The notes under the pieces: generated by a model
Databases searched by the model: none
What the model was told of the DNA's origin: nothing
What the model saw: the letters and a program-made list of their open reading frames with translations, nothing else
Source: Planctomycetota bacterium
GTDB lineage: Bacteria; Planctomycetota; UBA1135; UBA2386
DNA: 64,000 bases
Reading direction: 5' to 3'
Assembly: GCA_965228735.1 (NCBI GenBank)
Contig: OZ245838.1
Coordinates: forward strand, 3,424,001 to 3,488,000
Translations under genes and position numbers: made by a program
Part shown: piece by piece, positions 315 through 4,559 of the stretch
How the letters are laid out: each line of letters starts with the position of its first letter
Numbering within the stretch: position 1 is the first letter of the stretch

Positions 315-2486
315 ATGACCGGGCAAGCGGCAACGACGACGACGGCCACGGCCGATCGGAACGAGCGCGTGCTCGGGCCGCTCAAGGTCGGCCTGCGCCG
401 CGACCTGCACTTCACGCGCCAGGCCACGCGCGGCGGGCCGCGTTACATCGCGCACGACCCGGTGACGTTCGAGAATCACGCGTTCGGCGCGGCCGACTAC
501 CAGGTGATCACGGCGATCACGCACGAACGCACGCTGTCGGCGACGTTCGAGCAACTCGTCATGCGCGGCCTCGTCGAGGACACCGCGGATGGTCGCGACG
601 GGTTCTATCGCTTCGTCATCTGGCTGCACGGCAAGGGCCTCGTGCACCTGCCGATCGGCAACGGCGACCTGCTCTGGGACCGGCACAACGAACGGCGAGA
701 GCAACATCGCACGGCGTGGTACCGCACGCTGATGTACCACAAGGTGCCGCTCGGCAGTCCGGATGCGTTCTTGCGGCGCACGATGCCGCTGTTCGGCTGG
801 CTCTTCTCGGTGCCGGGCCTCCTGCTCTGGACGGCGCTCATGGGGCTCGTCGCGTGGAAGTGCTTCGGCCGCTTCGACGAGCTGTTCGGCCAGGCCCGGG
901 GTCTGCTCACGATCGCGAACCTGCCGCTGCTCTGGGGCGCGCTCGTCGTGCTCAAGGCCCTGCACGAGTTCGGGCACGCGTACGCGTGCCGGCGTTTCGG
1001 CGCCGCGGTGCCCGAGATGGGCGTCGTGCTGATCATGCTCACCCCGTGCGCCTACGTCGACGCGAGTGCGTCGTGGCGGCTCGATTCACGCCGCCGGCGG
1101 GCCATCGTCGCGCTCGGCGGCATGTACGTGGAATCGATCATCGCGGCCCTCGCCGCGCTCGTCTGGCTCGGCACCCCCCCGGGCTTCGTGCACGACCTCG
1201 CGCTCAACGTCGTCGTGCTCGCGAGCGTCGTCACCGTGCTCTTCAACATCAATCCGTTGATGAAGTACGACGGCTACTACCTGTTCTCGGACGTGGTGGG
1301 CGTGTTCAACCTGCAGCAGCGGTCCGCCGAGTTCTTGAACGCCTGGGTCGCGCACCTCGTGCTCGGCAGCCCACGGCCGCAGCACGACTACGCCCCGAGC
1401 GAACGCTGGCTCTACGCGACGTTCGGACCCGCGACCGTCGTGTATCGCATGTTCCTCGCGTTCGCGATCACCGCGCTCGTGATGGCGCAGTGGCCCGGCG
1501 CCGGTTTGTTCCTCGCCGCGGTGTTCTTCTACGGGCTCGCGATCCAGCCGACGCTGCGGCTCCTGCTGCGCCTGTGGCGGAACGATGCGCCCGCGCAACG
1601 CGTGCGCAGCCGCCTCGTCGCGGTGAGCCTCGTGACGATCCTGCCGATGCTCGCGAGCATGGTGCCGATCTCGTGGCACGTCACCGCTCCCGGCATCCTC
1701 GATCCGCAGTCGCGCGAGACGGTCCGCGCTCCCGCCGCGGGCTTCGTCGTCGAGCTCGACCATGCGATCGGCGATGCGGTCAGCAAGCACGACCGCCTCG
1801 GCCGCCTCGAGAACCCGGATCTCGAGGCTCGCCACCGCAAGATGCGGAACGAGCTGCTCGCCGAGCGCACGAGCCTCGACGCGATCGAGCTCGAGGACCC
1901 GACGCAGGCCGCGATCCACCGCTCCCGCATCGACTTCCTCGAAGCCGGCGTGACGGAGCTGAAGAGTCAGCTCGACGCGATGACGTTGACCGCGGCGACC
2001 ACGGGTCGGATCGCGAACCCCGAACGGCACGACTGGCGCGGGCGGTTCGTCCAACAGGGCGAGGAGCTGCTGCAGGTGCACTCGGAGCACCGCTTCCTGC
2101 GCGTCGTGCTCACCGACGAAGCCGTGTCGCGCACGCGGCTCGAGGTCGGCTCGCAGGCGATCGTGCGCTTCACGTGTGATCCGACGCGCGCGATCCAGGC
2201 CACGGTGCGCGACATCAAGAAGTCGGCGTCGCGCGAACGGATCCCGCTCGCGCTCACGATGCTCGCCGGCGGCGACGTCTACGCGCGCCCGCTCGCGGAA
2301 GGCAGCGCGTACGCGGTCGCCGACGAGCCGTACCTGCACATCCTGCTCGAGGTCGAGGACGTGCCGCTGGTCGATCGCGGCGCGGGGCTGACCGCGCGCG
2401 TGCAGTTCGACGCGCGCATCGAGTTGTTCGGCGCGTGGCTGCATCGCCGCGTGGTCGGGTTCTTCAACTCGTGGCGGATGTCGTAG
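315..2486 (+). CDS. Site-2 protease (peptidase M50) fused to HlyD-like biotinyl/coiled-coil domain
   Basis: HEFGH zinc motif and NPLMKYDG motif of M50, multiple TM segments, then an 'APGILDP...VRAPAAGFV' lipoyl-like half, a coiled coil and a HlyD-like C-terminus. Confidence 0.85.
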   Translation: MTGQAATTTTATADRNERVLGPLKVGLRRDLHFTRQATRGGPRYIAHDPVTFENHAFGAADYQVITAITHERTLSATFEQLVMRGLVEDTADGRDGFYRFVIWLHGKGLVHLPIGNGDLLWDRHNERREQHRTAWYRTLMYHKVPLGSPDAFLRRTMPLFGWLFSVPGLLLWTALMGLVAWKCFGRFDELFGQARGLLTIANLPLLWGALVVLKALHEFGHAYACRRFGAAVPEMGVVLIMLTPCAYVDASASWRLDSRRRRAIVALGGMYVESIIAALAALVWLGTPPGFVHDLALNVVVLASVVTVLFNINPLMKYDGYYLFSDVVGVFNLQQRSAEFLNAWVAHLVLGSPRPQHDYAPSERWLYATFGPATVVYRMFLAFAITALVMAQWPGAGLFLAAVFFYGLAIQPTLRLLLRLWRNDAPAQRVRSRLVAVSLVTILPMLASMVPISWHVTAPGILDPQSRETVRAPAAGFVVELDHAIGDAVSKHDRLGRLENPDLEARHRKMRNELLAERTSLDAIELEDPTQAAIHRSRIDFLEAGVTELKSQLDAMTLTAATTGRIANPERHDWRGRFVQQGEELLQVHSEHRFLRVVLTDEAVSRTRLEVGSQAIVRFTCDPTRAIQATVRDIKKSASRERIPLALTMLAGGDVYARPLAEGSAYAVADEPYLHILLEVEDVPLVDRGAGLTARVQFDARIELFGAWLHRRVVGFFNSWRMS

Positions 2487-2506
2487 CTGCGACGCCATTC
2501 GAAAAA

Positions 2507-2548
2507 TGTCAATCACTGCATTGACAGATCGAGGACATCTGATAGGGT
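2507..2548 (+). promoter_or_regulatory. Sigma70-type promoter with overlapping palindromic operator
   Basis: TTGACA 2521-2526, 16-nt spacer, TGn extended -10 and TAGGGT 2543-2548. Inverted repeat TGTCAAT-N6-ATTGACA (2507-2526) overlaps the -35. This is a locally AT-rich patch in GC-rich DNA. Confidence 0.6.
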
Positions 2549-2693
2549 TCCGCGCCCCAATGAGTCACCTATCAAGACAACCGGCGCGAGCGTACCCCAC
2601 GCCATCCGCCACGCGCGCAGGAATTGCGACGCCCGACTGACGGCTCGACCTCGACATTCGTCGACGAGAGAGTGTTCTCAGTCGCCGCGCCGC

Positions 2694-2735
2694 AGAGCCT
2701 CGCCCGGAAGCCCCGAGCGAGGCTCTCTTGGTTTT
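2694..2735 (+). terminator. Intrinsic terminator/attenuator-like hairpin
   Basis: 10-bp stem AGAGCCTCGC (2694-2703)/GCGAGGCTCT (2717-2726) followed by CTTGGTTTT. Confidence 0.5.
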
Positions 2736-2853
2736 GGCGCGTGATTGCGGCTCGCAGCGCTCGGGTCCCGTGACCCGGAACGCCCGCCCATCATCGAACT
2801 CGAGAACGAGGAGAAGCACGAATGAACGTCCAACACAGCATCCAGAACGGCTG

Positions 2854-3323
2854 ACGTCGTCCGGCGGCGCGAGCCGGCTGCGACCACTCCGGTGGCCGTA
2901 TCGCCGGCCCGTGTTCCGCGACAACGGGTTCTGCCGGCGTCACCGATCCGGAACCGAGCCTGCGGTTGCAGGTGGCAGAGCCATGCTCATGCGGGTTCGA
3001 ATCCCGCACCTGACTTCGGATCAGGCCGCCCAGATCAGGGAACACCTGACGAGGGCTCCCGCGTTCGGCCGGCGCCCCGTCCCTTACAGCCATCCTATGA
3101 CGGTGTGCGAGAGCATACCTGTCCATAGGCACCGCCTGATATCGCCTTGTATGCACGGTACGCGTCGCGGCAGCGACGTGGTCACGCCACCGGTATGCCC
3201 GTTGCGCCCATTCGAAGGGGACGGCGCGCGGCGACCGGACGGGACCGCGAAGCGCCGCGGCGAACCGTCCATCCGCGACGACGGCGGGGCACCGGGGAAC
3301 GGGGCGCCGGCTGGCGCCTTTTT
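2854..3323 (+). ncRNA. Putative structured ncRNA/leader containing a tRNA-like module
   Basis: Perfect T-arm GCGGG-TTCGAAT-CCCGC (2991-3007), adjacent UUCG-containing hairpin (3009-3025), GNRA-capped hairpins (3094-3129 GAGA; 3161-3180 GGCA), 13-bp long-range stem 3068-3080/3299-3311 and terminator-like 3301-3323. No credible ORF covers it. Confidence 0.6.
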
Positions 3324-3434
3324 CGCCTGCGCCGCAGTTCCGACGTCACCCGTTCCACCGAACACCCAGTTCCCGAACCAGAGCAGTCCCCGAACCAGAG
3401 GAAGAACACCCAGAGAAAGCAGAGAGGAAGAACC

Positions 3435-4559
3435 ATGATCCGTGTCACCATCGAGAAGAACCAGATCGGCATCGTGCTGCAGGACGGCGACGTCCGGCGC
3501 GTGCTGTCGGCCGGCCGTCACTACGTCCCGGAGCGCGTGCTGCCGGGCGTGACGGTCGCCCGCCTCAACCAGCGCATCACCCGCCTGGCCCACAGCAAGC
3601 TCGACGCGATCGTCGAGTCGCCCGCGCTGCGCGACCTGCTCACCGTCGTCGACCTCGGCGAGGACGAGCGGGCCATCGTGTGGCGTGACGGCCGGCTCTA
3701 CGACGTCGTCGCGGCGGGCCGATTCGCCTACTGGAACGCGCCGTACGCGCTGAAGGTCGAGACCTTCAGCGCCACGGCGACCCGGTTCACGCACCCCCAG
3801 CTGAACGCGATCCTCGCTCGCGAGGATGCGCGCACCCAGCTGGTCGGCATCGACGTCGAGCCGCACGAGCGCCTGCTCGTGCGGCGCGGCGGCGAGCTGA
3901 TCGGTGTGTTCGGCCCGGGCCGACACGCGTTCTGGCGCCTCGGCGGTGCGGTCACGTGGCAGGACGTCGACATGCGCGAACAGCTCGCGGACATCGGCGG
4001 CCAGGAGATCATGACGGCGGACAACGTCACGCTTCGGCTCAACCTGACCGTGACGTGGCAGATCACCGACCCGGTGGCCGCGACGACCGTCGTCGCTTCT
4101 GCTGGCCAGGCGCTCTACCGCGAAGCGCAGCTCGCGCTGCGGGCCGCCGTCTCGGCCCGCGATCTCGAGCGCGTGCTCACGGACAAGGCCGATCTCAGCA
4201 ACGAGGTCCGCGATGCGATCGCTGGCCGCGTGAACGAGTTCGGCGTCCGCGTCGTGAGCACGGGCATCCGTGACATCGTGCTGCCGGGCGACATGAAGGC
4301 GATCCTCAACCAGGTGATCGAGGCCAGGAAGCAGGCGGAAGCCAACCTGATCCGGCGGCGCGAGGAAACCGCGGCGGCCCGGAGCCAGGCCAACACCGCG
4401 CGCCTCCTGGCGGAGCACCCGGTGCTCATGCGCATGAAGGAGCTCGAGAGCCTGGAGGCGATCCTGCGGGGCACCCGCAGCACGTTCGTCTTCGGGACCG
4501 GCGACCTGACGGCGCAGATGAAGACGCTCGTTGCCAGCCAGAAGGACGGCGACGAGTGA
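3435..4559 (+). CDS. Slipin family (SPFH/band 7) protein
   Basis: ATG 3435 after AGAGAGGAAG RBS. Repeated 'vl.pGrh.fW' N-terminal units, 'GQEIMTADNVTLRLN', 'IRDIVLPGDMKAILNQVIEARKQAEANLIRRREETAA' and 'PVLMRMKELESLE'. Confidence 0.9.
   Translation: MIRVTIEKNQIGIVLQDGDVRRVLSAGRHYVPERVLPGVTVARLNQRITRLAHSKLDAIVESPALRDLLTVVDLGEDERAIVWRDGRLYDVVAAGRFAYWNAPYALKVETFSATATRFTHPQLNAILAREDARTQLVGIDVEPHERLLVRRGGELIGVFGPGRHAFWRLGGAVTWQDVDMREQLADIGGQEIMTADNVTLRLNLTVTWQITDPVAATTVVASAGQALYREAQLALRAAVSARDLERVLTDKADLSNEVRDAIAGRVNEFGVRVVSTGIRDIVLPGDMKAILNQVIEARKQAEANLIRRREETAAARSQANTARLLAEHPVLMRMKELESLEAILRGTRSTFVFGTGDLTAQMKTLVASQKDGDE

Follow-up and report, generated by a model that had tools for sequence, protein, structure and literature searches.

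A reduced tRNA mimic very probably lies within a conserved leader RNA upstream of a slipin gene in a planctomycete genome

A tRNA-like RNA named b7a-tRNA is said to have been predicted by Burroughs and Aravind in 2016. As far as the available part of a later account goes, it is a predicted ncRNA found beside a Band-7 protein and RtcB, and it was experimentally unvalidated as of 2018 (10.1101/312249). Y RNAs of the YrlA type, as described in the accessible portions of two sources, are permuted, with the layout V-T-AS-D, carry a GNCGAA Ro-binding motif and lie no more than 4 kb from Ro (PMC4201824), and their tRNA-like domain has been proposed to be a nuclease decoy (PMC7790460). Slipin has a published connection with translation stress: according to the available parts of the reports concerned, the slipin of Anabaena is 42-fold up together with rtcB and the trn operon on loss of the repressor TrcR (PMC10272220), and that of P. 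aeruginosa is located inside the rtc locus (PMC13086221, PMC8619066). A literature search returned no experimental test of b7a-tRNA after 2018, and no description of the elbow-only module, the 5' RNA domain (D1) or the ORF layout presented below; the 2016 b7a supplements fall outside the scope of that search and may include some of these. In the tRNA-like domain of tmRNA, a GG loop lacking a D-stem docks on the T-arm, and there is no anticodon.

The window analysed here is a stretch of 64,000 nucleotides from a planctomycete genome that consists of one 7.19-Mb contig and is 93% complete. An earlier note on this DNA had proposed that a tRNA mimic resembling the YrlA type of Y RNA lies at 2965..3056, upstream of a slipin gene. 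The perfect T-arm that it described, GCGGG-TTCGAAT-CCCGC at 2991-3007, could be read directly from the sequence, 444 nt upstream of the PF01145 gene and on the same strand, and the closed hairpin at 3009-3025 and the second hairpin at 3035-3049 were likewise found in place. The anticodon arm and CCA are absent from the module, as had been claimed, and ARAGORN called no tRNA (0) at the locus, where a canonical cloverleaf with an anticodon loop and an acceptor stem was not found. The T-arm core occurs once in the 64 kb, compared with 0.07 copies expected and with 7 of 100 shuffles that reach one copy, and none of 2000 dinucleotide shuffles of the intergenic region (948 nt, 2487-3434) produced a perfect T-arm. 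Contigs from 4/4 sequencing runs (four studies, any of which may be the source of the assembly) are identical over 2480-3700, and since they match letter for letter, an assembly error is excluded as the source of the module. Folded by itself, the 92-nt stretch is only a little more stable than its shuffles (z -1.38). The limits 2965..3056 enclose just the middle part of a longer predicted RNA, a leader RNA that probably extends over about 2855-3380 with the module inside it. Judged by comparison with related sequences, the module is very probably a reduced tRNA mimic of normal order, situated in a conserved leader RNA before the slipin gene. The features of leader and gene are as follows.

2521..2548, + strand: possible sigma-70-type promoter with a perfect -35 hexamer and a weak -10 (low confidence; no call by the consensus scanner)
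2560..2640, + strand: uORF1, 26 codons, a candidate attenuator leader peptide (from its sequence and family comparison)
2694..2734, + strand: terminator-like hairpin with a T-rich tail (inverted repeat I8; no call by the strict scanner)
2808..2854, + strand: Shine-Dalgarno site and uORF2 (2822-2854, 10 codons), the TGA of which abuts the first RNA helix
2851..2950, + strand: D1, a conserved 5' RNA domain, a long and irregular hairpin with a closing helix of 5-6 bp (model R1)
2958..2973, + strand: 6-bp hairpin in place of the acceptor 5' strand and D-stem 5' strand of the relatives (folding, strain variants)
2973..2990, + strand: 5' half of the mini module, with a D-loop-like GG at 2974-2975, a 4-bp hairpin at 2978-2988, and 2 nt (strict mini pattern)
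2991..3007, + strand: canonical T-arm (sequence; conserved in relatives and unchanged in strain variants)
3009..3025, + strand: hairpin A, the 'closed acceptor' of the earlier note (counterpart hairpin in relatives, by eye)
3028..3056, + strand: hairpin B, extended (variable in relatives; conserved D-loop letters absent)
3058..3073, + strand: conserved motif 3' of hairpin B (alignment of family members)
3087..3380, + strand: distal part of the leader, folded and with conserved motifs in islands; probably belongs to this RNA as its 3' portion (folding z)
3435..4559, + strand: slipin, a 374-aa SPFH/Band-7 protein (PF01145, E 2.3e-34)

In an alignment with 13 family members, the window copy keeps the GG of the D-loop and the T-arm, and is without the 5' strand of the D-stem, the anticodon arm and the 3' strand of the acceptor. 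The consensus fold of the aligned relatives is a normal cloverleaf, with the D-arm before the T-arm. In several relatives (L006, L041, L043 and L044) a hairpin of the CCTG/CAGG type, recognised by eye, lies 3' of the acceptor 3' strand and is the counterpart of hairpin A; because this counterpart follows the acceptor strand, the hairpin at 3009-3025 is not the closed acceptor stem that it had been taken for. An alternative pairing of 2969-2973 with 3008-3012 around a mini D-arm, also offered at that time, is possible on paper, but its pair probability was 0.00-0.05 in three folding contexts. A 5-bp acceptor closure can likewise be drawn in the window, yet its folding probability is 0.00-0.02, separate hairpins being favoured. 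Pair probabilities for the 6-bp hairpin (2958-2973) were 0.76, 0.28 and 0.0 in three contexts, and those for the 4-bp hairpin (2978-2988) ranged from 0.31 to 0.95; when 2855-3086 was folded as a single sequence, the T-arm had a probability of just 0.38 and the first D1 helix of 0.0.

Slipin loci were gathered by class, family, order and phylum searches and by one genome-collection scan, the phylum part being the best 30 of 57 matches. Where 600 nt or more of sequence upstream of slipin was available, a T-arm was located 200-750 nt upstream of the gene in 40 of the 44 loci of a first set and in 30 of the 33 of a second, in which the phylum part is again the best 30 of 57. These 77 rows take in the window and two duplicate loci, and the seven loci without a T-arm at that distance are L038, L039, L040, L050, L187, L191 and L196. 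A module census covering 79 loci (duplicate loci removed; 300 nt or more of upstream DNA; phylum part the best 30 of 57 matches) gave 100 modules, 68 of which parse into D-arm, anticodon arm and T-arm in the normal order. The GG is kept in the D-loop of 65 of these 68 full modules and CCA is present in 9; a seven-base anticodon loop is found in 45, with 26 different triplets among those 45, and ARAGORN assigns many different identities to orthologous copies. On these sequences, the modules of the relatives are best described as pseudo-tRNAs with an anticodon that appears free to drift. Within the family of the window's host, 14 of 17 relatives have a full module, one module is cut by a contig end, and two are reduced.

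A strict mini pattern (GG-H-A, a hairpin of 3-6 bp, then the T-arm) was defined after the sequences had been viewed. It fits 19 of 35 non-cloverleaf T-arms, the window included, and 0 of 65 cloverleaf T-arms, with a mean of 0.9 and a maximum of 5 in 1000 shuffles; elsewhere in the genome it fits 16 of 741 further T-arm-like sites that are not tRNAs. Because the pattern was drawn from these same sequences, the enrichment is post hoc, and the relatives that carry it are not independent, L028 and L030 being near-identical. The mini module stands alone at L033, L200, L202, L203 and the window, where no other module was found. It is otherwise usually placed 3' of a full module (15 loci on a looser count), and occurs also in RtcB-holding loci (L028, L030, L031 and L184). 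It often stands directly after a CCA, as though starting at the 3' end of the preceding unit (L172, L173, L178, L188, L200, L201). Further arrays of tRNA or tRNA-like genes were seen directly upstream of the slipin leader at L172, L174, L178, L190, L199, L201, L203 and L204, and recall stress-induced tRNA operons such as the trn operon of Anabaena.

The 5' part of the leader RNA is D1, which begins directly 3' of the uORF2 stop and is single-copy in the genome. Model R1, built from 19 sequences, matched 45 times across 78 sources; 18 of these matches are rows on which it was trained, and one is probably spurious. In D1, pairing holds in 92.8% of cells and both sides change in 18 of 23 pairs, with slid controls at or below 53.8%; the alignment behind these counts was fitted to the model, and most of the covariation is in a variable hairpin. 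D1 was found in 16 of 91 family genomes, all of them within the 20 that have slipin, and in 0 of the 71 that do not, the relatives not being independent of each other. The comparison of regions upstream of slipin relatives that had been proposed earlier bears out the module, the T-arm being conserved and the 5' domain D1 covarying. D1 has two competing local folds, and a long-range pairing between D1 and 3058-3073 was noticed by eye, although RNAalifold does not choose it. The region 2855-3380 as a whole folds with z -6.05 (100 shuffles), and the distal leader (3087-3380) alone with z -2.5, its consensus fold being poor (15 pairs in 12 sequences).

Some further observations concern this RNA. 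D1 contains a near-invariant GGGTTC bulge (window 2925-2934), which is T-loop-like in several relatives (GGGTTCGAC) and could be a second elbow-type contact. At L022, an RtcA/RtcB locus, a D1-like domain and a full module come after a sigma-54-type site that was recognised by eye about 560 nt upstream of slipin, and the leader RNA there can stand under different control. A 252-nt contig covers 2855-3086 with 9-nt loose ends on each side, its matched start being the first base past the uORF2 stop; its library is only guessed to be RNA, and the contig does not count as expression evidence. A metagenome scan with a D1 motif, which gave at least 120 loci, was discarded: among the 120 listed, none had a slipin and none a T-arm at 20-250 nt downstream. 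These are chance coding matches, of use as a rough background.

The RNA is preceded by a control region. Ribosome-controlled attenuators of antibiotic-inducible genes have a short ORF just before a terminator, with a possible anti-terminator in the last codons. A terminator-like hairpin is present at 14 of 17 family loci and at 9 of 27 others, versus 7 of 600 random positions, and at 11 of 15 family loci, including the window, the terminator arm lies 23-59 nt past the end of an ORF that begins with ATG. By analogy, uORF1 and the terminator may form a ribosome-position attenuator. As in the antibiotic-inducible attenuators, uORF1 ends near the terminator hairpin; unlike them, it would gate a structured RNA and an SPFH gene, and anti-terminator support is partial, a match to the 5' arm of the terminator having p <= 0.05 in 6 of 15 family loci (window p 0.21). 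A Shine-Dalgarno-led ORF of 9-14 codons with its stop at the RNA edge is found at 14 of the 17 family loci and at 0 of the 27 others, the background for a stop at the RNA edge, given a TGA, being 132/3000 (4.4%). The peptide encoded by this type of ORF, to which uORF2 belongs, is not conserved in sequence among family loci. A sigma-54 site near 3190 was rejected, having no positional counterpart in most relatives, and a search for an RtcR/sigma-54 regulon did not find PF06956 (RtcR) in the genome.

The slipin has stomatin as its best match by both sequence and fold. Its AlphaFold2 model (mean pLDDT 90.6) has three N-terminal beta repeats, an SPFH core and a long helix, and no membrane helix was seen in this model. 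A vault-type repeat fold was considered for the N-terminal repeats; the full model also matches the major vault protein (MVP) at E 8e-13, below stomatin. The N-terminal part best matches SPFH1 domains (prohibitin, Z 5.5, rmsd 2.4, 44 aligned; erlin, Z 5.2, rmsd 1.7, 43 aligned), with Z 3.5, rmsd 2.2 and 39 aligned for MVP repeats, and a Foldseek search with this part gave no match at E 0.001. The gene upstream of the leader (window 315-2486) encodes an intramembrane peptidase of the M50 type (HExxH) joined to an HlyD-like adaptor, a fusion of the kind present in peptide-export clusters, and no link between it and the leader RNA was seen.

The earlier note was right that no Ro or RtcB gene is located here. 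Of the two genes that it wished to place genome-wide, RtcB was located about 1.0 Mb from the slipin locus, but TROVE (PF05731) was not found in the host genome (93% complete; the control matched in 2 of 14). Its link between a conserved tRNA mimic and slipin also held, and the connection to RNA repair is present in other lineages, with RtcB inside nine slipin loci of the first set and inside L184 of the second (phylum part the best 30 of 57). RtcB was present in none of the seven planctomycete-titled loci L016-L021 and L024, and RtcA, RlaP and RtcR were among the neighbours at some slipin loci (5 of 30 proteins scanned). One genome (L051/L041) has two slipin paralogues; one is stand-alone with D1 and an attenuator-like leader, and the other, more distant, has tandem full modules beside RtcB. 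Isolated tRNA 3' halves ending in CCA were also observed outside called tRNA genes on the host contig (for example at 71019, 489200, 541765, 564841, 1297771, 1905896, 5222892 and 6942585); three are near-identical, and they resemble integration-site duplications.

We consider it fairly probable that the reduced mimic in the slipin leader likely displays a tRNA elbow, which would act as decoy or tether in a complex of the RNA with slipin, a soluble SPFH assembly, formed when translation stalls. The mechanism taken by itself, in which an elbow decoy or tether is made with slipin when translation stalls, is put forward tentatively. Position, normal order, reduction and co-occurrence with slipin come from comparison; expression, folding, binding and induction we infer. 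When translation stalls, a ribosome on uORF1 would let transcription pass the terminator, giving the folded RNA and the slipin mRNA. The GG would then dock on the T-loop through contacts like the G18-U55 and G19-C56 pairs of tRNA, and the leader RNA would bind slipin oligomers, most likely through the 5' domain D1. An elbow with neither anticodon nor acceptor end could engage tRNA-recognising enzymes as a decoy or tether, as proposed for YrlA, candidate targets being RtcB, the repair ligase, which would be made in trans, or else anticodon nucleases, to which it would offer no anticodon that can be cut. It is doubtful whether the reading can be carried as far as a minimal tRNA mimic of about 35 nt that is the core of the slipin RNA, is switched on by the attenuator, is delivered next to a ribosome that terminates on uORF2, and travels in an SPFH cage without a membrane, forming a bacterial stress RNP that depends on neither Ro nor RtcR. 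Natural copies with only GG and T-arm point to the elbow as the part of tRNA required by the system, and would be ready-made minimal constructs. A stand-alone unit of RNA and slipin, with no Ro, RtcR or adjacent RtcB, would let the part played by the SPFH protein and its RNA be studied separately from that of the ligase, and the leader layout predicts induction through stalled ribosomes.

An alternative, which we judge unlikely, is that the leader works in cis only. The tRNA-like part would then be a sensor or a site of processing, recognised for example by RNase P or a different enzyme that binds elbows, and would control the stability or translation of the slipin mRNA, with no lasting complex between RNA and slipin. 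This alternative would fit the constant position of the RNA, always directly upstream of slipin on the same strand and preceded by a terminator and two short ORFs. In 11 of the 12 leaders aligned (L041-L049, L003, L005-L008), a 5-bp CCTCC/GGAGG hairpin sequesters the Shine-Dalgarno site of slipin, which also agrees with control in cis; this hairpin is, however, absent from the window, where there is instead an A-rich, internally duplicated stretch (3360-3433). Similarly, full modules retain an acceptor helix (mean 4.73 bp versus 3.05 bp shuffled, n=51), but in mini modules it is at chance level (2.67 bp versus 2.56 bp shuffled, n=18), and because mini modules have no acceptor helix beyond chance, enzymes that cut at the acceptor would be without their usual substrate. 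Tandem and triple modules are moreover common in slipin loci, which exceeds the needs of a single cut site.

It is improbable, in our estimation, that the window module is a decaying pseudo-tRNA of the b7a type, with the flanking domains alone of importance and the mini match arising by chance. The closest relatives have full cloverleaves, and because one of them from the same genus (L004) keeps this form, the window form is a recent loss and could be decay. GAGC is also the 3' strand of the D-stem in the full form, so the resemblance to a mini module could be chance, the strict mini pattern being present at 2.2% of the chance T-arm-like sites. The strain variants, known from two contigs, cluster in 2965-2977 (two insertions and two substitutions), with bases added at 2965 and 2977, a change at 2976 and, in one contig, a change at 2973. 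They insert a base in the loop of the 2958-2973 hairpin, convert its end G-U to G-C in one contig, and shift the linker after the GG towards the form of L200/L202. Against decay stand a T-arm that is perfect and free of variants, and the GG, which is intact in both variant contigs along with the 4-bp hairpin and hairpins A and B. The segment 2978-3119 is unchanged in the strain variants, compared with about 3 changes expected (20 changes in 847 nt), which, like the shift in the linker, favours the reduced-mimic reading. Also counting against decay, distant loci show this reduced form again, with stems that are unrelated in sequence.

That the module is a Y RNA permuted like YrlA (V, T, closed acceptor, D), or a small tmRNA-like domain with a 5-bp acceptor, is very improbable and largely refuted. 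The order of short hairpin, T-arm, hairpin and hairpin mirrors the V-T-AS-D of YrlA as given in the accessible portion of PMC4201824, hairpin B starts GCCC-AG and ends A-GGGC, and three minis of the host's own family could close 5, 5 and 4 bp versus 3.5-4.2 bp expected, but hairpin B is without U8, a Levitt pair and a free GG and is variable in relatives, which have their D-arm upstream, while the end pair of the 5-bp acceptor is broken in one variant contig. The hallmarks of YrlA are also missing, with no GNCGAA(N)G in 2487-3434, no GNCGAA in 2855-3086, no match to RF02553 at the locus up to E 1 (two sub-threshold matches lie elsewhere in the genome) and no TROVE gene. The Rfam search that had been suggested for YrlA and tRNA gave 0 matches at the gathering score in the whole 64-kb window, and 5 weak unrelated matches, none of them YrlA, to E 10 over 2500-3400.

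A reduced mimic of normal order is the reading that we retain, and it can be set beside the known systems. Like the tRNA-like domain of tmRNA, the mini module has a GG loop, a T-arm, no D-stem and no anticodon; unlike tmRNA, mini modules are without a conserved acceptor stem or CCA, and the genome has its own tmRNA elsewhere. With YrlA it shares the character of a non-decoding tRNA mimic that retains T-loop and D-loop letters and is linked to RNA-repair systems, whereas YrlA has T before D, GNCGAA and Ro within 4 kb, none of which the window has. As with b7a-tRNA, a tRNA-like ncRNA lies beside a Band-7 gene in the orthologous position, most of the relatives are full cloverleaves, and RtcB is adjacent in some. 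The window copy differs in having no cloverleaf, in the absence of RtcR and Ro as well as RtcB at the locus, and in forming part of a longer RNA, which has a 5' domain that covaries and is preceded by a terminator and a pair of short ORFs. The suggestion of an orphan or new class of RNA was not upheld, the pairing with slipin having already been predicted as b7a-tRNA in the available part of 10.1101/312249. Of the b7a-tRNA features, the window has the Band-7 neighbour and lacks the adjacent RtcB, and resemblance to authentic tRNA, seen in 68 of 100 slipin-locus modules, is not seen in the window copy (ARAGORN 0). Because it is not tRNA-like enough for ARAGORN and RtcB is not adjacent, the window copy is classed as a derived variant and not as a member of b7a-tRNA; on the letters of the DNA, it is best regarded as a descendant of b7a-tRNA rather than as a Y RNA.
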